DNA from: Chloroflexia bacterium
GTDB taxonomy: Bacteria; Chloroflexota; Chloroflexia; DTKN01
DNA: 64,000 nt
Reading direction: 5' to 3'
Assembly: GCA_016928715.1 (NCBI GenBank)
Contig: JAFGKG010000219.1
Span: forward strand, 29,671-93,670
Below the pieces are notes generated by a model that did no database searches, was not told where the DNA came from, and saw only the letters and a program-made list of their open reading frames with translations. Shown piece by piece: positions 10,277 through 23,955 of this stretch. Numbering within the stretch: the first letter of the stretch is position 1; each line of letters begins with the position of its first letter. A program made the translations under genes and the position numbers.

Positions 10277-13200
10277 GTCCTCTTCGGCAGCCGGTTTGAG
10301 CGAATCCCAGGGCAGGCTTTCAAACTCTGGGCTATCGCTCTCCTCCAGGTCATCACCGCGCAAGAAGCGCATCGCCTGTTCACGCTCGAGACTGCGGGAG
10401 CCTTCCTCCTCCAGCGCGATGCGGGCCAGGCGCTGACGCTCTTCGGCCCGTTTACGGCGGATCTCCAGTCCTGTCCCAGCCGGGATCAGCCGCCCGATAA
10501 TGACATTTTCCTTCAGGCCGCGCAAATAGTCCATCTTGCCCATCACGGCCGCCTCTGTCAGCACACGGGTTGTCTCCTGGAAGGAGGCCGCGGCCAGCCA
10601 GGAATCGGTGTTCAAGGCCGCCTTGGTAATGCCGAGCAGGACCAGGTGCGCCGTCGCCGGTTCCCCACCGGCGGCGATCACGCGTGAATTCTCCTCTTGG
10701 TAGCTAGAACGATCCACCAGGTCCCCGGGCAAAAAGTCCGTATCCCCGGGGTCATCCACCTGGACCCGGCGCAGCATCTGCCGGATGATGATTTCCAGGT
10801 GCTTGTCATTGATGTCCACGCCCTGCGAGCAGTAGACGCTTTGGGCCTCATTGACCAGGTACGACTGGACCGCTTCGCGGCCGGCAATCTGCAATAGAGC
10901 TCGCGGATCGATCGAGCCCTCGGTCAGGCGATGGCCGGCCTCGATCCACTGTTCTTCGCGTACACGCAGGCGAACGGGAATCGGCACTTCGTACTCGCGC
11001 ACCTCTTCCTCGGCCCCCCGCAGCACAATCCGGCCGTCCTCCATAAAGACCTGACCGGCGACGCTGGCTACAATCGAAGGGCGGTCGTCGTCCTCTACAT
11101 TAGTCTCGGCCAACAGATCGCCCTCCTCGACCTCATCACCTTCCTCTACCCGGCAGACGAATTGTTCGGGGATCTCGTACACATCGCTGTAGGCCTCGCT
11201 GTGGACCACCCGGATAATGCGATGGTCGCCCTCGCGAATGATCTCGACGGTGCCATCGATATCGGCGATCTCGGCTTTCCCCTTGGGCAGGCGGGCCTCG
11301 AAAACCTCCTGCACCCGGGGCAGACCCTTGGTAATATCCAACTCGGATTTGACCCCACCGGTGTGAAAGGTGCGCAGCGTAAGCTGGGTACCCGGCTCAC
11401 CAATGGACTGGGCGGCGATGATACCAATGGCCTCGCCGATGCCCACCAGATTGCCGGTGGCCAAATTGCGGCCATAGCAGAGCGAGCAGAGACCGATCGG
11501 GGCCTGGCAGGAGAGCGGCGAGCGGACGAAAAAGTTGGTGAGGGCCTCCTCTTCCAAGAGACGCCGGGCCTCCGCGGGCACCTCTTCGTCTCCTCGCAGG
11601 ATCGCCTTGCGGCGCTCTGGCCGCAGCAAGGGCAGGGGGCGATCGAGGATCTTGGCCACCTGCTGCCAGACCTTTTGATTGATCTGGTCCACCCGCTCCC
11701 AGGCCTGTTCGTCAAATTCGTCGTTGCGGTCCACCAGGATTTCGCCACTGCTCGGATCGGCTACGGGCAAGGCCATCCGGCGCCCAATCAGGCGGGCGCT
11801 CAGTTCCTCGATAGTATGGTCGGCCTCGCGGACCCAGATGCCGCCTTCCGTCTCGCAGTCCTCACTGACAATGGTGACATCCTGGGCCACATCGACCAGG
11901 CGGCGGGTCAGATAACCGGCCTCGGCCGTACGCAGAGCGGTATCGGCCAGGCCTTTGCGTCCACCGTGGGTAGAGACAAAGTACTCCAGAACCGAAAGTC
12001 CCTCACGAAAGTTGGAACGAATGGGCAGGTCGATAATCCGGCCCGCCGGATCGGTCATCAGACCGCGCATGCCGGCCATCTGGCGAATCTGCTCGATATT
12101 GCCGCGGGCGCCGGAGGTGGCCATCATATAGACCGGGCCAAAGCGATCCAGTGTATTCGAGACCTCGGAGGTAATTTTTTGCGTGGCCTCGGTCCAGACC
12201 TCCACAGTGCCCCGATAGCGCTCGCCCTCGGTAATCAGACCGCGCCGGAACTGCCGCTCCAGGTTTTCCACCTCGCTATCGGCCTTGGAAAGGAGCTCCG
12301 TCTTGCCCTCGGGGATCTCGATATCCTCTATCCCGATGGTCAGGCCGGCCCGCGTGGCAAAGCGAAAGCCCAGTTGCTTAATCCGGTCGGCCATAGCGGC
12401 CGTCTCTTCGGCGCCATACTGACGGTAGCACTCGGCGATGATGCGACGCAAGGCCTTTTTATCCATAATCTCGTTGCGGAAGCGCAAACCTTCGGGCAGT
12501 ACCTCATTGAGAATGACCCGACCCAGGCAGGTTTCCAGAAGCTCATTGCCGATCTGGTAAGAGGGGGGAAGCAGGATGCGGATCTTGGTCTGGAGTCCGA
12601 TCAGGCCGGCATCGTAGGCCATCAGGGCCTCCTCCAGGCTGGAGAAAGCCTTGCCCTCCCCCCAAGCACCCGGCCGAACCAAGGTCATATAGTAGCAACC
12701 CAAGACCATCTCCTGGCTAGGGGTAATGATGGGGGAACCGGTGGCCGGAGAGAGCAGATTGTGCACTGAAAGCATACGATTGCGCGCTTCCTGCTGTGCC
12801 CGTTCTGAAAGCGGCACATGCACGGCCATCTGGTCGCCATCAAAGTCGGCGGCAAAAGCCGTACAGACGAGCGGGTGCAATTGGATGGCACTGCCCTCGA
12901 TCAGGACGGGCTCAAAAGCCTGAATGGAAAGGCGGTGCAGGGAGGGAGCCCGGTTCAGCAGCACCAAATAATTCTGCACGACCTCTTCCAGGACATCCCA
13001 GACCTCTGGACGGATCCGCTCGACACTGCGTTTGGCACTCTTGATGTTATGCGCATAGCCCCGTGCGACCAGGCCACGCATCACAAAAGGCTTGAACAGC
13101 TCGAGGGCCATCCGCTTGGGCAGACCACACTGGTGCAGCTTGAGATTGGGGCCGACCACAATGACCGAGCGGCCGGAATAGTCGACCCGCTTGCCCAAGA

Positions 13201-14789: not shown

Positions 14790-17700
14790 CTATTCTCTTT
14801 CGATACCAGAGAGGTTGATCCCCTCCAGCCCAATCAGGGGCCGAGTTTGTTGCCCCGCGTTGTCAATATCCACTGCCGCCTCATCGTCGCCATAGATCTC
14901 GACCGACAATCCCAAGCTTTGCAGTTCCTTGACCAACACCTTAAAGGCCTCAGGGATACCCACCTCCTGAATGGGCTCCCCTTTGACAATCGCCTCATAG
15001 GTCTTGCTGCGGCCATTGATATCATCGGACTTGACCGTGAGCATTTCTTGCAGCGTATAAGCCGCCCCATAAGCCTCCAGCGCCCAGACCTCCATCTCGC
15101 CAAAGCGCTGCCCACCGAACTGGGCTTTGCCGCCCAGGGGCTGCTGGGTGACCAGGGAATAGGGGCCGGTAGAGCGGGCGTGGATTTTGTCCTCCACCAG
15201 GTGGGCCAGCTTCATCATATAGATATAGCCCACCGCGACAGGATTTTCAAAGGGCTCTCCGGTGCGGCCATCGTAGAGCGTGATCTTGCCATTATCGGGG
15301 AGGCCGGCTTTTACCAGCATATCTTCGATATCCCTTTCCTCGGCGCCGTCAAAGACGGGGGTGGCGACCTTGATCCCCAATCTGAGTGCGGCCCAGCCGA
15401 GATGGGTCTCGAGTAGCTGCCCAATGTTCATGCGCGAGGGCACGCCCAGCGGGTTGAGGACAATATCCACCGGCGTACCATCGGGCAGAAAGGGCATATC
15501 TTCAACGGGCAGGATACGCGAGATGACGCCCTTGTTGCCGTGCCGCCCGGCCATCTTGTCCCCGGCGGCGATTTTACGCCGCTGGGCAATGAGGACCCGC
15601 ACCATCGTGTGCACGCCAACCGAGAGTTCGTCGCCCTGGTCGCGGGAAAATATCTTGACATCAATCACCCGGCCGGAGACCCCATGGGGAACCCGCAGGG
15701 AAGAATCCCGCACCTCGCGGGCCTTTTCTCCAAAGATCGCCCGCAGCAGGCGCTCCTCGGCGGTCAGGTCCGTCTCTCCCTTGGGCGTGATCTTGCCCAC
15801 CAGGATCTCACCCGGCCCGACCTCGGCCCCGATATAAACCACGCCGGCTTCGTCCAGATTGGCGAGCAGGTCCTGACCTACATTGGGGATATCCCGGGTA
15901 ATCTCCTCCGGGCCCAACTTGGTATCGCGGGCCTCACATTCGTACTTTTCGATGTGCACGGAGGTATAGACGTCCTCCCGTTCCAGCCGCTCGCTGATGA
16001 GGATGGCGTCCTCAAAGTTACCTCCCTCCCAGGGCAAAAAGGCCACCAGGACGTTGCGCCCCAAGGCCAGTTCTCCATTGTCGGTAGAAGGCCCATCGGC
16101 GATGACCTGCCCGGCGACCACCCCATCCCCCTTTTGCACAATCGGCCGCTGGTGAATGCAGGTATCCTGATTGGAACGACGGAATCCAATCAGCGGATAG
16201 GTGCGCTCAAAACCATCCTCTTCCCGCACCAGGATTTCGTCGGCCACCGCCCGCAGCACCTCGCCGTCAGCGGCGGCAATAGCCACCAGGCCGGAATCAC
16301 GGGCCGCCTGGTACTCCATGCCCGTACCGACCAGGGGCGATTCCGGCACCAGCAGGGGCACGGCCTGTCGCTGCATGTTGGAACCCATCAGGGCACGGTT
16401 GGCATCGTCATGTTCCAGGAAGGGGATCAGGGCCGTGGATACCGAAACAACCTGTTTGGGCGACACATCCATAAAGTCGATTTGGTCGGCGCGCTCCAGG
16501 GTGGGCCGGGAACCTCGCCGGGCCGTGACCCGCTCGTCGATGAAGCGATTGCGCTCGTCCAGGCGGGCATTGGCTTGGGCAATGGTATACCGATCGTCCT
16601 CGTCGGCGGAGAGATAGGTGATCTCTTGGCTTACCGTCGGATGCACCGCAATGCGTTTCAAGGGCAGCGCCGCGATCCGCTTGCTCAGGGCCTCGTCAAT
16701 TTCTGTGCCGGCTGCCGCGACCAACTCGCCGCTCTGCGGATCGGTTACGTCCTGGCGCAACAGATGCCCTTCCAGGAGTACCGCCCGGTTCTCCAACTCG
16801 CGGACGACCCGGCGATAGGGGGTCTCGATAAAACCAAGCGGGTTAACCCGCCCATAGGTCGCCAGGCTGCCAATCAAGCCGATGTTGGGGCCCTCGGGGG
16901 TTTCTACCGGACAAATACGCCCATAGTGTGAATGGTGCACATCTCGGACCTCAAAGCCGGCCCGATCACGGGAAAGGCCACCCGGCCCCAGCGCCGAAAG
17001 GCGCCGCTTGTGGGTCAACTCGGCCAAGGGGTTGGTCTGGTCCATGAACTGGGAAAGCTGGCTGCCACCAAAGAATTCTCGAATCGCCGCCACCAGCGGT
17101 CGAATGTTGATCAGACGATTGGGCATCACTGTTTCGGGCTCGCTCATGGTCATCCGCTCACGGATGATGCGCTCTATGCGCAGCAAGCCAATACGGAATT
17201 GGTTCTGCACGAGCTCGCCCACCGTGCGGACCCGGCGATTGCCCAGATGGTCAATATCATCCGGTTCGCCCCAACCATTGTTCAGACGGATCAGCTCTTC
17301 AACGATGCGAATAATGTCCGCCGTAACCAGGGTGCGCTGGTTCAAGGGCGGCGGATCCTGATGCCCACTGATCACGCGCACGTAAAAGCGGCTGCAAAGA
17401 TGCTCAAACTCGTATTCCGCAGGACCAATCCAAAGGTCCTGGCCCTCTTGACACATCTCGCAGCCCGGGCAGATGTACCAGCCGCACTCGGGGCACATCT
17501 CGACTTTGCTCGAGTCAATCAAATGGGCCTCATCCCGCCAGCAGGTCACGGATTCCCCACTCAGGGCCAGTTCTACCACCTCTTGGGTCTGGGCCCGCAG
17601 TGCTTTTATCTCGTTCTCTTCCAGGCTGAGCCCCCCCCTGGCCCGCTCCAACCACCAGACGCGCTGCTGCACCATGTCATCAACAAGTTCTTGATCCGCC

Positions 17701-18710
17701 CCATGCTCGCGGGCCTGCTGCCAAAGATCCAGCCAGGCGCGCCGGCGCTCCAAACCCTCTCGGACCTCCGGCTCCAGCGTGCGATTCTCCCACAAGCGGC
17801 GGTTCAATTTGTAGCGTCCGACCTTGGCCAGGTTGTAACGCCGCTCATCAAAGAGCATGCTCTCCAGTAAATTGCGCGCATTGTCCAAAGTAGGGGGATC
17901 GCCGGGACGAAGCCGCCGATAGATTTCCAGCAATGCCTCCGGCTGGTCCGTACTGGGATCCCGGCCCAGCGTGGCCTCGATAAAGGAACGATCCGTCGAG
18001 GTATCCACATGTTGGAAAAGAGCCCGAAGCTCGTCATCCGTATCGTAGCCCAACGCTCGCAATAGAATGGTCACCGGGATTTTGCGCCGCCGATCCATCT
18101 TGACCGAGAGAACATTGCGGCGATTGGTCTCGAAATCCAGCCAGGCTCCCCGCGCCGGAATCAACTTGGCTGCGTACAGGGGCAAACCATCGCGGGTCTC
18201 GTCCTTGAACTGAAAATAGCAACCCGGGGAACGGACCAACTGGGAGACCACCACCCGCTCAGCCCCGTTGATGATAAAGGTAGCCCGGTTGGTCATCCAG
18301 GGAAAATCACCACAAAAAATCTCTTGCTCCCGGACCTCACCCGACTCTTTGATGTGGAGTTGGACTTGAACGCGCAGAGGACGAGCGTAGGTGGCATCCC
18401 GTTCCCGGGCCTCGCTCTCACTGTAACGGGGCTCCCCAAAGTAATAGTGCAAAAAGTACAGCTCCATCTTGCGCCCGGTGAAATCCTGTACCGGCGAGAT
18501 CTCGGTAAAAATCTGCTGCAGGCCCTCCTCGACAAACCAATGGAAGGACTCCAACTGGGTCTGGATCAGGTGGGGCATGGGTAAAATTTCAGGGATCCGC
18601 GAGAAGGAATGCCGCTCGGGTCGCTTGACCTCTCGAATGGGGTGCTGTGGACCCGGTAAAGAATCCTCTACCGTCACAGACTGTTCAGGAGTACGAACAA
18701 CAACGGACAT
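14790..18710 (-). CDS. rpoB: DNA-directed RNA polymerase subunit beta
   Basis: [63 protein letters not shown]. Confidence 0.99.
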
Positions 18711-18826
18711 TCAACGCCTCCACAGTGTTAAGGCCGGTCCTCACAGACCAGGCGAGCTTTTCGATAGGTTGGGGGTACCGTTCTTTAGGGGGATAAAACA
18801 CCAACGAACCGCCCATCCAGTAGCAC

Positions 18827-18855
18827 TGGACAGGAACCTTGGTTTTGTGTATAAT
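18827..18855 (+). promoter_or_regulatory. sigma70-type promoter for the GH/ligase gene
   Basis: TGGACA-N17-TATAAT. Confidence 0.6.
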
Positions 18856-19017
18856 ACCCTTGATCCAGGAAAGCACATCGCTTGGAGAGAATGCCCCAGA
18901 GACCTGTTGGTCCAGGTATGTTTTTGCGAGGAAACAGGAACTCAAATCTTGCCGCCTACCGCTCGGTTTCCGTTCCTGGCAACGTACCAATTTTTGTGCC
19001 CCACCCCCGAGGACACA

Positions 19018-22000
19018 ATGCCCCACTTTAAGAAAACTTCAATCGAACAGTATACCATAAAAAGAATTATTTGTCAACTCACCGCCTTGACCATTCTAAC
19101 GAGCCTGCTGGCGACGCTGCTGGCCGCCGTCGTCTGGCTGGATAACAACTATAACCGCGGGGTCTCCTGGGGGCCAGAGCTGCCCCGCATCGCCCAAGCC
19201 GACGTACATCCCTTGGGCGTCAACCTCTTTTTGGACCGCGAGCCGGCAGAGAGCAACATCCGCCGCACTCTGAAGCTGACGCAGGACATGGGCGCTCATT
19301 GGGTCAAGCAGCTCTTCCCCTGGGACCAAATCGAGCCCACGGCCAAGGGGGACTTTTGGGACGAGCGCTACGGCCACAGCACCTGGTCCCATTATGATCT
19401 CATCGTCCAGCTCTGCCAGGAGCATAACCTGTCCTTGATCGTCCGCCTGGACCGTCCACCCGAGTGGGCCCGCCAGGAGGCACTGCGCAACCCGACCCTG
19501 CAGGCAGCCCTACAGGAAAACCCAGCCCTCGATATCACGGGACCCCCGGACCACCTCTCCGATTATGGCGATTTTGTCTATGCCGTCGTCTCCCGCTATC
19601 GGGGCCAGATCCACTACGTCCAAATCTGGAACGAACCCAATCTGGCCAATGAATGGAACTGGGACGCCATCGATCCAGAGCACTTTGTCGAGCTACTGCG
19701 CATCGCTTACAGCCGCGCCAAAGAGGCCGATCCGGACGTGCAGGTGATCTTTCCCAGCCTGGCCCCCAATGATGGCCGCGATCCCCGTCACATGAGTGAC
19801 CTGGAGTTTTTAAAACGAGTTTATGAGGCCGGCGGGGGAGGCTATTTTGACATCATGTCCGCCCAGCTCTATGGCCTGGGCCAACCCCCCACAGAGCACT
19901 CCCCCCTAGGTCTGGACCGAACCCAGGGGCGCTTACTGACCCGCACGGACGTCTCGCGCATTGTCCTGCTGCGCGAGATCATGGAGCAGCACGGAGATTG
20001 GGACAAGGCTATCTGGATCGGCGAACTGGGCTGGAATGCTGTCCCCAATGATTGGGCCGGCCAAGCCAGTCCATGGGGCGCCTCCGTCGACGAGCAGACC
20101 AAAGGCCGCTACATCACAGCCGCCCTAGACCGTTCCCTGCACGAATGGCCCTGGGCAGGCGTGCACAACCTCTGGTTCCTGCACTGGGATGGCCCTGCGC
20201 CCAAGGCGGATGACCCCACACCCTTTTTTGCCCTGGTGGACCATGATTACAATGCATTGCCGGCCTACGCGGCTGTGCAAAAGTGGGCCACCCAGGGCAT
20301 TCCCCTCGGCGTGGGCTATCACCGTCTCCCGCCCCAATCCGGCCTGGACCTGCGCTTTGTGGGGACCCGCCTGGACCTGCTGCTGCCGGCGAACGATGAC
20401 GCCCAGGGGCTAGAGTTCATTGTGGATGGCGTCCGCCAAGAGCCGCACTTTTGGCGCTATGAGGGCACCGAGTCTCGCTACATCGTCGCCCGGGACCTGC
20501 CGGATACAACGCATACACTGCGGCTGTCCGCCCCAGCCGGGCTCTCCTGGTCTTGCTACGTCGTGCGCGAACAGCCCTGGCCCTGGCTTTTCCCCAGCCT
20601 GAGCGCCCTCCTGGCCATCGCCCTGCTCATCAGCGTGATCCTCCTACTGCGACGCCTGCCGGCCAGCCTGGCCGCGCTCTGGACCTGGGCCTGGCGCGCC
20701 AGGGCCCGCTTCCACGCCTGCCCGAACGCGCTGCAGAACGGACTGATCCTCGGCGGTATGGCCCTGAGCCTGCTCCTGTTCTACCTCCTGCGCGGGCAGC
20801 CCTCCCTCCTGGCCCTGCCGGCCGCCCTATTGCTGTTAGCCGCCCAGGTCCTCTTGGCCCTGCTGCGCCTCGACCTGGCCCTGCTGGCCGCGGTTTTCTT
20901 TATCCCCCTCTACGCCCAACCCGTCCAGTTCGCCGGACGGCAGTTCGCCCCCTTTGAGCTGATCATCCTGGCCTGCCTGGCCGCGGCCGGCCTGGAACTG
21001 CTGCGCTCGGACCGCCGGCGCGCTTTTCTAGCCCGGCTGAACCTCTCGCAACTGCTGCCAGCCCTGCTCTTTATGTTAGTCTGCGCCGGTTCCCTGCTCT
21101 GGTCGACCGATCGCTCCTTCGTCACCGACGAGGGGATCGGCCTGCTGCGAATTTCCCTGCGCGAGTTCCGCGTCACCGTGCTGGAACCTTTCCTGCTCTA
21201 CCCCCTGCTGCTGCTGGCCCTGCCCCGGCTCCGTTCGGCCGGCGCGCCGGTCGGCAGTCCGGAACGAGAAGCACAACTGCAGCAACAGCATCGGCAGGCG
21301 GGACAATTCTGGTGGCCCATCGACGCCCTGGTCTTCAGCGCTGCCTTGGTCTCGCTGGGGGGGATCGTGCAGGTGCTCAACCCCGCCCTGCACGCCGAGG
21401 TCGCCGATGGCGTACGCCGGGCCAGCTCGGTCTATGGGACCTTTTCGCCCAACAACCTGGCCCTCTTTTTGGGCCGGGTGCTGGCCCTGGCCGCCGCTGG
21501 CGGGATCTTTTTGGCACGGGGCCGGCGCAAGCGGCTGTACCTGGCCGCGCTGCCCCTGCTGGGAACCGCCTTTTTGCTGACCTACTCTCGGAGCGGGCTC
21601 ATCGCCTTGGCCCTGCTGCTGCTGTTCTACGGCCTCCAGGTCAGCCGATTGCTGCTCTGGGCGGAACTGGGACTGGGTGCCGCAGGGTCTCTTTTCCTCT
21701 GGCTGACCGGGGGCCTGCAACGTCTACTGGCCACAGATACCCTGGGCAACCGCCTGACCATGTGGCGCAGGGCCTGGGTCCTGGTACGCGAGCACCCCTG
21801 GCTGGGCCTCGGCCTGGATGCATTTTACCATCACTACCACCGACGTTATCCCGAGCTGGGAGCAGAAGCCTACTGGACGCCGCATAATGTTGTACTGGAA
21901 TTTTGGACGCGCTTGGGCCTGTTGGGGCTCGCCGGGGCGGCCTGGCTCTATGGGGCCTTTTTCGCCCGGGCCGGCCGGCTCTACCGGCAACTGCAGGATC

Positions 22001-22143
22001 CCCAGATGCGCTGCCTGCTGCTGGGGCTCTTGGGAAGCGTGGTCTATGGACTGGCCCATGGCCTGCTGGACGGCACCTTTTTTGCCCCAGACTGGGCGGC
22101 CCTCTTTTGGCTGGCCTACGGCCTGGTGGCCGCACTGCCCTAA
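19018..22143 (+). CDS. GH-A clan glycoside hydrolase domain fused to an O-antigen ligase/Wzy_C-type membrane domain
   Basis: N-terminal TM; QIWNEPN (acid/base) and WIGELGW (nucleophile); then many TMs with SPNNLA, TYSRSG, R..MW, PWLGLG, PHNVVLE; RBS GAGGA before ATG 19018. Confidence 0.8.
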   Translation: MPHFKKTSIEQYTIKRIICQLTALTILTSLLATLLAAVVWLDNNYNRGVSWGPELPRIAQADVHPLGVNLFLDREPAESNIRRTLKLTQDMGAHWVKQLFPWDQIEPTAKGDFWDERYGHSTWSHYDLIVQLCQEHNLSLIVRLDRPPEWARQEALRNPTLQAALQENPALDITGPPDHLSDYGDFVYAVVSRYRGQIHYVQIWNEPNLANEWNWDAIDPEHFVELLRIAYSRAKEADPDVQVIFPSLAPNDGRDPRHMSDLEFLKRVYEAGGGGYFDIMSAQLYGLGQPPTEHSPLGLDRTQGRLLTRTDVSRIVLLREIMEQHGDWDKAIWIGELGWNAVPNDWAGQASPWGASVDEQTKGRYITAALDRSLHEWPWAGVHNLWFLHWDGPAPKADDPTPFFALVDHDYNALPAYAAVQKWATQGIPLGVGYHRLPPQSGLDLRFVGTRLDLLLPANDDAQGLEFIVDGVRQEPHFWRYEGTESRYIVARDLPDTTHTLRLSAPAGLSWSCYVVREQPWPWLFPSLSALLAIALLISVILLLRRLPASLAALWTWAWRARARFHACPNALQNGLILGGMALSLLLFYLLRGQPSLLALPAALLLLAAQVLLALLRLDLALLAAVFFIPLYAQPVQFAGRQFAPFELIILACLAAAGLELLRSDRRRAFLARLNLSQLLPALLFMLVCAGSLLWSTDRSFVTDEGIGLLRISLREFRVTVLEPFLLYPLLLLALPRLRSAGAPVGSPEREAQLQQQHRQAGQFWWPIDALVFSAALVSLGGIVQVLNPALHAEVADGVRRASSVYGTFSPNNLALFLGRVLALAAAGGIFLARGRRKRLYLAALPLLGTAFLLTYSRSGLIALALLLLFYGLQVSRLLLWAELGLGAAGSLFLWLTGGLQRLLATDTLGNRLTMWRRAWVLVREHPWLGLGLDAFYHHYHRRYPELGAEAYWTPHNVVLEFWTRLGLLGLAGAAWLYGAFFARAGRLYRQLQDPQMRCLLLGLLGSVVYGLAHGLLDGTFFAPDWAALFWLAYGLVAALP
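19049..19077 (-). promoter_or_regulatory. sigma70-type promoter for rpoBC
   Basis: Minus strand TTGACA-N17-TATACT with TG extended -10. Confidence 0.7.
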
Positions 22144-22902: not shown

Positions 22903-23955
22903 CTAGAGGTTCTCAATCTCTTCCAAAATTGCCCGCAGTCCGCCGGCTGACTCCGCCTGACCGGCCGCATCCATCTCTTGAGCACGCTCGTGCAGATAGT
23001 CCAGGGCTTCCTCGTTGAGCAGGATGGGGTACTGGCTCAAGAGTTCGCCTATTTCGGCGGATGACATCTCGGGCGACAAGGTCAACAGATGCTGCTGGAT
23101 CTCTTGCAGCAATTTCTCAGCCTCTTCCAGGGGCAGGCCACTGATTTTCTCCAAAAAGGCCGCCTGCAGGCCCACCCGACGACAGCGCTGCAGCAGTTGG
23201 CGGTGCTCCTGCAGCATGTCGACCGTCTCCTCATCCTGGCGATCCTGAGCATAGTCAATCATCCGGGCCAGCTCGCTGTCAGAGGGCGGGGCCAACAACT
23301 CGGGATGTGACTCCAGCATCTCTTTGGATTCCCCCCAAGTATCCAGTTGGGCAAAGGTGAGCAGGTCCTGCTGCAATTGGGATGTCGCGATGCCGGCAAT
23401 CTCCAAGGCTTCGCGCAGCTCGGGCCGCTCGTCCAGAAAGGCGCTCATGCCTTCAATGGTCTCGACCTCCGCAGCCTTGAGTTCCCGCAGGGCCGTCTGC
23501 ACGTGAGGCGGAAATCGACGCATCGACTGCTCCCACATCTCATCCAGAGCCGCCTCTACCGCTTGATTTCCCCCGGTCAGGTAGGCCGGCAAGAGGGGCA
23601 ACGGGACAAAGACCGGCTGCTCCAGGTGGGAAACATCCGCTGCATCGGGCAGCGCCTGCTGCAGCCGTTCCAACAATTGTACAAAATCCTGGCTGTCCCG
23701 ATCCCGGGTGGTTCCTTGGGAGGGGGCAAAGATCAGTTGTTCCTGGCTCGCGTCGTGGTAGAGTAGGGGTGCATCGAGCCAGCCAATGGTCTCTTGGCAG
23801 TGGGGGCACTGCACCTGGCGCAGCGTACCTGCCTGGACCTGTGCCGCCAGTTCGGGTCGCTCGACTGCGTCGACCAGGAGCCAGAGGGTGTAGCCAAAGT
23901 TTTGCTCGCAGTGGGGGCAAGTCAGCCAGATCTCTTCATAGTGGGAAATATTCAC
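22903..23955 (-). CDS. CpXC domain (Zn-ribbon) protein with helical C-terminus
   Basis: TCPHC...W..VDA.ERPEL...CPHC...PLLYHD. Confidence 0.8.
   Translation of the reverse strand: MNISHYEEIWLTCPHCEQNFGYTLWLLVDAVERPELAAQVQAGTLRQVQCPHCQETIGWLDAPLLYHDASQEQLIFAPSQGTTRDRDSQDFVQLLERLQQALPDAADVSHLEQPVFVPLPLLPAYLTGGNQAVEAALDEMWEQSMRRFPPHVQTALRELKAAEVETIEGMSAFLDERPELREALEIAGIATSQLQQDLLTFAQLDTWGESKEMLESHPELLAPPSDSELARMIDYAQDRQDEETVDMLQEHRQLLQRCRRVGLQAAFLEKISGLPLEEAEKLLQEIQQHLLTLSPEMSSAEIGELLSQYPILLNEEALDYLHERAQEMDAAGQAESAGGLRAILEEIENL

Follow-up and report, generated by a model that had tools for sequence, protein, structure and literature searches.

A Cys/His-rich insert domain in the RNA polymerase beta lobe of a Chloroflexia order and its homologue at another lobe position

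The beta subunit of RNA polymerase (RpoB) encoded in a 64,000-nucleotide stretch of DNA from a Chloroflexia bacterium (assembly GCA_016928715.1, contig JAFGKG010000219.1, positions 29,671-93,670 of the forward strand; GTDB Chloroflexota; Chloroflexia; DTKN01), hereafter the window, carries in its lobe an insert with a strictly conserved set of Cys and His residues. The insert is found throughout the order to which the genome belongs (lineage 1), is under purifying selection, has a homologous copy at another site of the lobe in a second Chloroflexota RpoB lineage (lineage 2), and has no relatives that our searches could detect. On balance, we lean towards the reading that it is a portable lobe domain of ~140 residues that would hold two structural zinc ions and serve as a docking platform for a lineage-specific partner. 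Coordinates are positions in the window and residue numbers are those of the window RpoB; PMC8318588, PMC11515920, PMC7862312 and a preprint on Firmicutes polymerases are cited for the parts of these sources available to us.

A 152-residue insert in the only beta subunit of the genome

Pfam recognizes the usual six Rpb2 domains in RpoB, with the lobe domain (Rpb2_2) broken off at residue 309, at profile position 148 of 190. A first-pass annotation of this DNA, made from sequence alone, had reported an insertion of about 150 amino acids between the motifs GRYKLNRRL and RTLVTADI, and this was confirmed, the exact extent being 152 residues (307-458). The insert is encoded on the minus strand; read in the plus direction, the frame of 17345-17790 contains stops. 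The insert holds seven of the 12 Cys of RpoB, at 390, 406, 409, 414, 417, 420 and 439, accompanied by His at 396 and 437, in agreement with the seven-Cys module described earlier; of the spacing then given, CxxC-x4-CxxC-xx-C-x18-C is correct, while the first gap is C-x15-C and not C-x18-C. A genome search returned a single rpoB match in the window's own genome, so the insert sits in a housekeeping, working polymerase.

Distribution and constraint

All nine species genomes (four genera) of the window's order, which comprises a single family, carry the insert. When 41 genomes were searched, the RpoBs of the eight other family genomes aligned with the query across the insert at 79-83% identity (the rpoB match of one being divided between two contigs), and those of other Chloroflexia families matched as two pieces, leaving out roughly residues 307-455. 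The distance from GRYK to DDIDHL is 185-186 residues in eight insert-bearing loci, against 42-52 in the 19 loci compared from other families of the class (two of the 19 from unpublished genomes), and Chloroflexia lacking the insert have 8-18 residues at the same place. Among 401 sampled genomes of the class, a profile of the module matched all nine family genomes at E 1e-47 to 1e-49; no credible match was found in the 392 others, four of which scored at E 1.2e-3 to 6.3e-3, about what is expected by chance, two of them with stops. A sample of 400 additional genomes from the phylum gave zero matches. The insert is also present in 13 protein clusters among 5.8 billion proteins, every one of them an RpoB and drawn from several sources, and recurs in the same frame on eight metagenome contigs of lineage 1.

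All seven Cys, His396 and His437 are invariant in 16 aligned lineage-1 sequences. Pairwise Nei-Gojobori comparison of eight genomes (28 pairs) put the ratio of non-synonymous to synonymous substitution rates (dN/dS) at ~0.07 in the Cys module, as against 0.06-0.10 in the polymerase core and ~0.28 in the helical part, values that are approximate at a dS of ~1; the Cys module is under constraint equal to that of the polymerase core. G+C content at third codon positions is 0.74 in the insert and 0.72 in the rest of rpoB. Recurrence across genomes, invariant Cys and His, low dN/dS and matching third-position composition together exclude a chimera, a recent foreign fragment or a decaying relic. This disposes of two objections that the first-pass annotation had raised against itself, namely that the Cys might not be conserved in related RpoBs and that the region might be an assembly artefact: the same in-frame insert stands in the eight other family genomes, the 13 clusters and the eight metagenome contigs.

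The same evidence bears on whether the insert might be no more than what is left, without function, of a selfish or accidental insertion (an intein relic, a mobile element or slippage) that is tolerated in a permissive loop. The site is indeed a known permissive hot spot, but a remnant is scarcely credible when the dN/dS of the module equals that of the core at dS ~1, its composition is like that of the remaining gene, nine Cys and His are invariant across four genera, eight positions hold across two lineages, and neither intein ends nor a flanking duplication are found (p 0.33-0.99). Inteins start with Cys, Ser or Thr and end in His-Asn, followed by Cys, Ser or Thr; the insert opens with Trp307 and closes with Asn457-Gln458 ahead of Arg459, and an intein was rejected. 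A target-site-like duplication of host sequence flanking the insert was likewise unsupported, with shuffle p values of 0.40-0.66 for three lineage-1 and 0.33-0.99 for seven lineage-2 sequences.

Two sub-domains and a fixed set of ligand positions

In the arrangement that we propose, the insert would be an autonomous, portable domain made of an N-terminal Trp-rich three-helix part and a 50-residue knot. Trp326, Trp330, Trp352 and Trp353 of the helical part are invariant in an alignment of both RpoB lineages. The core of the knot follows the pattern C390-W-x4-H396-x9-C406-P-x-C409-G-W-Y-[IV]-C414-x2-[C/D]417-x2-C420-x16-[H/Y]437-x-C439, and the ligand spacing is fixed in 47 frames, amounting to 31 distinct module sequences from both lineages. 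At these positions the 19 distinct sequences of lineage 1 have C,H,C,C,C,C,C,H,C. Of the distinct sequences of lineage 2, 11 have C,H,C,C,C,D,C,H,C and one has C,H,C,C,C,D,C,Y,C. A possible ligand is always present at eight positions (390, 396, 406, 409, 414, 417 as Cys or Asp, 420 and 439), which is enough for two tetrahedral sites.

The structure prediction that the first-pass annotation had recommended was run with AlphaFold2 on the insert alone (9-row alignment) and on the lobe plus insert (26 rows). Helices folded at segment residues 18-40, 44-61 and 69-87 of the insert alone, with block means of the predicted local distance difference test (pLDDT) of 73-91; in the lobe context the lobe reached 78-94 and the helices 64-89, and the Cys knot came out at low confidence in both. 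A Foldseek search of the insert-alone model against the PDB returned 0 matches at E up to 0.001, the knot having failed to fold in the models.

The net charge of the 50-residue core is -7 to -12 in the 19 distinct lineage-1 sequences, and that of the lineage-1 helical part is -1 to -6. These figures tell against a nucleic-acid-binding surface, one of the functions proposed in the first-pass annotation, by which the domain would contact nascent RNA, or DNA lying upstream or downstream of the bubble. Many small Cys/His modules are indeed nucleic-acid binders, the downstream DNA channel runs along the lobe, and the cores of lineage 2 come close to neutrality and contain several Arg and His. However, the acidic core makes such binding unlikely in the window's own lineage, and the alignment has no conserved basic patch common to both lineages; as an explanation of the domain as a whole, we hold this reading to be very improbable.

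The insertion site on the beta lobe

A phmmer search against the PDB aligned residues 254-314 of the window RpoB to residues 228-289 of Bacillus subtilis beta, and residues 459-519 to 375-435. The two anchors flank the native insert of the B. subtilis polymerase 6wvj (about 290-374), in which they stand about 85-95 residues apart, and also those of 8x6f and 8i23; a cyanobacterial beta subunit (8syi) has 5 residues at this site. Judged by the alignment of both anchors, the insert occupies the known hot spot beta-i5 of the beta lobe (beta2, or Rpb2 domain 2), which bears out the earlier remark that lineage-specific inserts such as that of the Firmicutes are housed here. The domain would have been spliced into this surface loop so as to project from the polymerase exterior.

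The B. subtilis insert, named SI1 or beta-i5, is surface-exposed and has a documented partner, binding the helicase PcrA's C-terminal Tudor domain through a TGE hairpin (PMC8318588). The Firmicutes preprint places this insert in the major lobe and proposes the lobe as a platform for lineage-specific factors. The insert described here shares with the Firmicutes element (beta-i5, or beta-In5) its lineage-specific nature and its insertion point after a GRYK(L/I)N..L anchor, but it differs in length (152 versus ~90 residues) and has no sequence similarity to it; since only the flanks align, the two inserts are not homologous. Profile hidden Markov models (HMMs) of the insert matched zero polymerase chains in the PDB, and neither phmmer nor these models found a sequence match between the insert and any solved beta insert. 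The Firmicutes insert has been classed as a BEAN domain and, in the part of that survey available to us, is given no metal site (PMC11515920). Compared with a BEAN domain, our insert is predicted to have three long helices plus short hairpins, rather than two antiparallel bracket-like elements, with the knot modelled at low confidence.

A homologous domain at a second lobe site

A metagenome scan with the module profile found 17 loci, eight belonging to lineage 1 and nine (L074-L082) to lineage 2, which is also represented by eight protein clusters, one of them labelled 'Anaerolineales bacterium' by NCBI. Lineage-2 RpoBs are 1419-1446 residues long, with cores 65-71% identical to those of Chloroflexia RpoBs, and their domain is 35-38% identical to the window insert over helices and knot alike. 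The motifs ERRxxWxxLW, ERxWW, CWxxxxH, CPECGWY[IV]C, CQ and F.[HY].C are common to both lineages.

The position of the domain is different. In lineage 2 it lies between KIPVT[VI]LLRA and DEEL..LF, after the equivalent of window RpoB residue 219 and ~87 residues upstream of the lineage-1 site, and the GRYK site is empty (the GRYK-to-DDIDHL distance being 42). Residues 190-235 of the window RpoB align to residues 183-228 of Escherichia coli beta. The lineage-2 site thereby falls at about E. coli residue 212, and the alignment ends some 10-15 residues further on, at residue 228. The site is just before the start of the E. coli insert beta-i4 (SI1), which we take to span residues 225-343; the exact site differs from that of beta-i4. 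A tree was built from 35 rows and 678 columns of the RpoB core, leaving out the inserts, two unpublished rows and one partial row; in it each lineage was monophyletic with a support of 100, and lineages 1 and 2 were neighbours with a weak support of 78.

With a homologous domain at a second lobe site, the insert behaves as a discrete, portable unit. The two sites could reflect two insertions from a lost donor, or relocation of the domain within the lobe. The first-pass annotation had pictured a captured domain, which fits the homologous copy in another RpoB lineage; no stand-alone donor was found in the searches below. A comparable pattern is known for BEAN insertions, where one homologous domain is found at non-equivalent lobe positions in different lineages (PMC11515920), with the difference that another domain family is involved here and that the hosts are neighbouring Chloroflexota lineages rather than phyla.

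Three observations on these RpoBs may be added. Lineage-2 RpoB has an extra gap of ~170-220 residues within Pfam Rpb2_6, from about residue 1100 to domain 7 at 1322-1329. The gene after rpoB in lineage 2 is fusA, not rpoC. Finally, three genomes of another Chloroflexia family have a short extra RpoB stretch directly after LLRA, where query matches break at about residues 227-243; this stretch hints that the LLRA loop is a second permissive spot.

Search for relatives

The insert has no match in Pfam, NCBIfam or the PDB, the search in NCBIfam turning up nothing relevant. A phmmer search of the 152-residue insert against 1.84 billion representative proteins gave 0 matches; because clustering at 50% can hide RpoB-embedded copies behind insert-free representatives, this null speaks mainly to stand-alone families. 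None of 71 candidates scored when proteins of 40-130 amino acids were searched with the module profile, no second copy of the domain outside rpoB was found by profile in the window's own genome, the viral contigs of IMG/VR gave no domain match with either profile, including a two-lineage one, and tblastn against 50,697 phage records gave no domain match. The search for stand-alone homologues that the first-pass annotation had called for has thus been made in protein, phage and viral collections, and none was found. A literature search found no published Cys-rich or zinc-binding insert in a bacterial beta lobe, and the lineage-specific polymerase inserts that have been surveyed are BEAN or sandwich-barrel type domains, described without metal sites in the available part of that survey (PMC11515920).

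Such family resemblances as there are remain below threshold, and all of them in Pfam are to zinc-finger families, in keeping with the conserved Cys/His module first described. FYVE_2 was matched at E 0.027 and 15.1 bits, FYVE_CARP1-2 by eight of 16 members at 12.9-15.2 bits (best E 0.0031), Zn_ribbon_3 by seven of 16 (best E 0.31) and A2L_zn_ribbon by six of 16. Neither the insert nor any of the 16 members matched an iron-sulfur (Fe-S) family in Pfam at E up to 10. The nearest named clusters in the ESM Atlas were Prok-RING_2, B-box, A2L ribbon, Gin and ZZ at 0.80-0.83, which are weak leads.

Cross-brace fingers of the FYVE, PHD and RING type bind two zinc ions through four pairs of Cys/His ligands; the knot is like them in offering eight ligand positions and in its central C-x2-C-G-x3-C-x2-C, but it differs from them in a ninth conserved Cys/His and in scores of 13-15 bits against curated Pfam cut-offs of about 27 bits for FYVE-type families; the FYVE signature motifs are absent from the insert. 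Zinc ribbons and rubredoxin-like proteins have two CPxC(G) knuckles on facing hairpins; in the knot, CPECG and CPxC are just four residues apart in lineage 1, and the second knuckle is C-x2-D in lineage 2.

Several other candidates were rejected. The best ESM Atlas hits, viral hypothetical proteins at 0.91 with 144-154 shared features, are within the chance range. The best profile matches in the PDB, a snake neurotoxin at E 0.049 and the archaeal Nop10 ribbon at E 0.53, were taken as chance, as was the match of the two-lineage profile to eukaryotic ribosomal protein L24 (E 0.0062), which lies on charged helices. A protein of 350 amino acids with an N-terminal CpXC domain (PF14353, with two CPHC motifs) and a long acidic helical tail is encoded at 22903-23955 on the minus strand, 5 kb upstream of rpoB; hhalign gave a probability of 7% over 7 columns for its similarity to the insert, and an origin of the insert from this gene was rejected.

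Metal and function

The metal, the fold and the docking function are what we infer for the domain. The CPxCG knuckle together with the zinc-type leads makes two structural zinc ions the best guess, and these would most likely be held by the knot ligands Cys, His, Cys, Cys, Cys, Cys/Asp, Cys and Cys. The domain would have been fixed in the ancestor of one Chloroflexia order and kept since by purifying selection, presenting a rigid, metal-stabilized docking surface to a lineage-specific protein partner. This role is suggested by the position on the lobe and by analogy with beta-i5, which binds PcrA, and with E. coli beta-i4, which binds DksA/TraR and UvrD; direct contact of the domain with nucleic acid appears less likely.

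Alternatively, the knot might bind an Fe-S cluster, for example a 4Fe-4S cluster on C414, C/D417, C420 and a remote Cys, with the remaining Cys3His holding zinc. Such a cluster could make the polymerase responsive to oxygen, nitric oxide or redox state, or could serve assembly, as does that of archaeal subunit D. The eight conserved ligand positions would permit one cluster plus one zinc, and positions 414-420 read C-x2-C-x2-C, with the middle Cys replaced by Asp in all 12 distinct lineage-2 sequences. Cys/Asp variation in C-x2-[C/D]-x2-C is classic for ferredoxin-type 4Fe-4S/3Fe-4S sites, and we retain the Fe-S reading, albeit as an unlikely one. The ferredoxin-type 4Fe-4S motif is C-x2-C-x2-C-x3-C-P, but the insert has the triad alone, with neither the x3-C-P continuation nor a Fer4-type or other Fe-S match in Pfam; the CPxCG knuckle is of zinc type, as are the nearest language-model clusters, Asp is also an accepted zinc ligand, and no cluster-assembly gene adjoins rpoB.

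Several points weigh against two zincs and a docking role. Within C-x2-[C/D]-x2-C, lineage 1 has Cys at position 417 where lineage 2 has Asp. The family resemblances to zinc fingers are all below the curated cut-offs and may reflect Cys composition alone. The pLDDT of the knot is 33-60 for the insert alone and 41-68 in the lobe context, so that fold, ligand pairing and orientation cannot be read from the models. Acidity is not common to both lineages, the net charge of the lineage-2 core being +1 to -6; because the core charge differs between lineages, a common function cannot rest on it, and the features conserved across the lineages are the Trp-rich helices and the ligand set, not charge. 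The docking role, finally, is an analogy with other lobe inserts and not a result.

A further observation concerns docking elsewhere on this polymerase. Residues 657-663 of RpoB, within another insert between Pfam Rpb2_3 and Rpb2_45, read DPQSGEL(V) (16722-16742, minus strand), and may constitute a candidate helicase docking site by their resemblance to the PcrA/UvrD helicase-interaction motif (VDPETGEIL / IDESTGELI; PMC8318588). If this is a helicase motif, helicase docking may already be provided outside the lobe insert.

Co-occurring changes at the active site

The first-pass annotation had noted that the insert co-occurs with a change in the NADFDGD motif of the beta-prime subunit (RpoC), and the association proved to extend over the whole order, although the substituted residue is Ala only in the window genome, and Gly in the eight other family genomes. 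An rpoC match was present in 116 genomes of the class; among the 30 loci inspected from these, NADFDGD was kept in 21 of 21 loci of other families (two of the 21 from unpublished genomes); GADFDGD was found in all six lineage-1 metagenome loci that extend into rpoC. The window's own genome has one rpoC match. In RpoB, residue 777 (16380-16382, minus strand) lies in MGSNMQRQ in 13 of 13 lineage-1 and six of six lineage-2 sequences, compared with MGANMQRQ in 18 of 18 other Chloroflexia, and nine further fixed substitutions are specific to lineage-1 RpoB. The insert and the Asn loss were fixed on the same branch, which makes them a single event and not a correlation.

These changes could be read as a sign that the domain acts in cis on catalysis, reaching the downstream or secondary channel and having co-evolved with the loss of the NADFDGD Asn. 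Besides the joint presence of the insert and [G/A]ADFDGD in all nine genomes of the order, the Ala-to-Ser change in MGANMQRQ shared by lineages 1 and 2 points this way, as does the standing of the beta-prime Asn458 as one of three universally conserved residues that contact the 2'OH of the nucleoside triphosphate (PMC7862312). On the other side, co-fixation on one branch counts as one event, the effects of the N458S substitution in E. coli are 5-fold or less (less than 5-fold for selectivity; PMC7862312), and we judge a direct effect on catalysis improbable. Nor would the insert stand in for a lost Gre factor, a possibility that was rejected when GreA_GreB was found in nine of nine family genomes.

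RNA polymerase is also tuned in trans by small Cys4-type zinc modules located on its lobe, jaw or secondary channel, among them the zinc-binding domain of beta-prime, the ribbons of Rpb9 and TFIIS, and DksA. The insert resembles them by analogy alone; no homology was detected, and it differs in being covalently part of beta. A bolder synthesis would make the insert an undescribed portable metal domain, spliced twice at neighbouring lobe hot spots in sister Chloroflexota lineages and acting, rather than as a passive platform, as a built-in regulator of an atypical catalytic centre with which it co-evolved through the Asn loss. We consider this decidedly unlikely; if true, such a regulator would tune substrate selection, fidelity or initiation, as a redox-sensitive Fe-S/zinc switch or as the cis equivalent of Rpb9/DksA-type modules.

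Feature coordinates and genomic neighbourhood

The features discussed above are collected in Table 1. Pfam Rpb1_1 falls into two stretches in RpoC, the best starting at residue 298, with a long charged helical insert at residues of about 130-300; Chloroflexi have been assigned a beta-prime type with its own insertion (PMC11515920). The usual rplJL genes are not upstream of rpoB. An open frame of 1224 amino acids (18469-22143, plus strand) overlaps the rpoB start, but matches O-antigen ligase (Wzy_C) only at residues 1029-1156, and the real gene therefore probably begins much later.

Table 1. Features of the rpoB-rpoC region, in window positions.
Feature	Residues	Position	Strand	Basis or remark
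rpoC, next after rpoB	1485 aa	10271..14728	-	Open reading frame list, translation
AADFDGD instead of universal NADFDGD	RpoC 626-632	12833..12853	-	Co-occurring trait, outside the insert
rpoB, RNA polymerase beta subunit	1306 aa	14790..18710	-	Open reading frame list, translation; six Pfam RNA_pol_Rpb2 domains
Downstream anchor RTLVTADI	459-466	17313..17336	-	Aligns from B. subtilis beta 375 on, E. coli beta 422 on
Whole insert, between GRYKLNRRL and RTLVTADI	307-458 (152 aa)	17337..17792	-	
Pro-rich return linker	446-458	17337..17375	-	Mean identity 0.67; absent from lineage-2 form
Cys/His putative metal-binding module	385-445	17376..17558	-	Core 17394-17543
Helical sub-domain, three predicted helices, Trp-rich motifs ERRxxWxxLW and ERxWW	307-384	17559..17792	-	AlphaFold2, alignment
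Upstream anchor GRYKLNRRL	298-306	17793..17819	-	Kept in all bacterial beta subunits aligned
VTILLRA, point corresponding to lineage-2 insertion	213-219	18054..18074	-	No insert in the window genome

Significance

Lineage-specific inserts in the polymerase lobe are known, as is this hot spot; what is new is an apparently orphan domain with eight conserved ligand positions. An entire order has this domain fixed in its only housekeeping polymerase, and a related lineage carries it again elsewhere on the lobe. Its recurrence at two sites provides independent evidence for the outer face of the lobe as a selected docking site and for domains moving as units, and the insert, along with the order-wide replacement of Asn, marks these uncultured Chloroflexia as having an unusual transcription enzyme.

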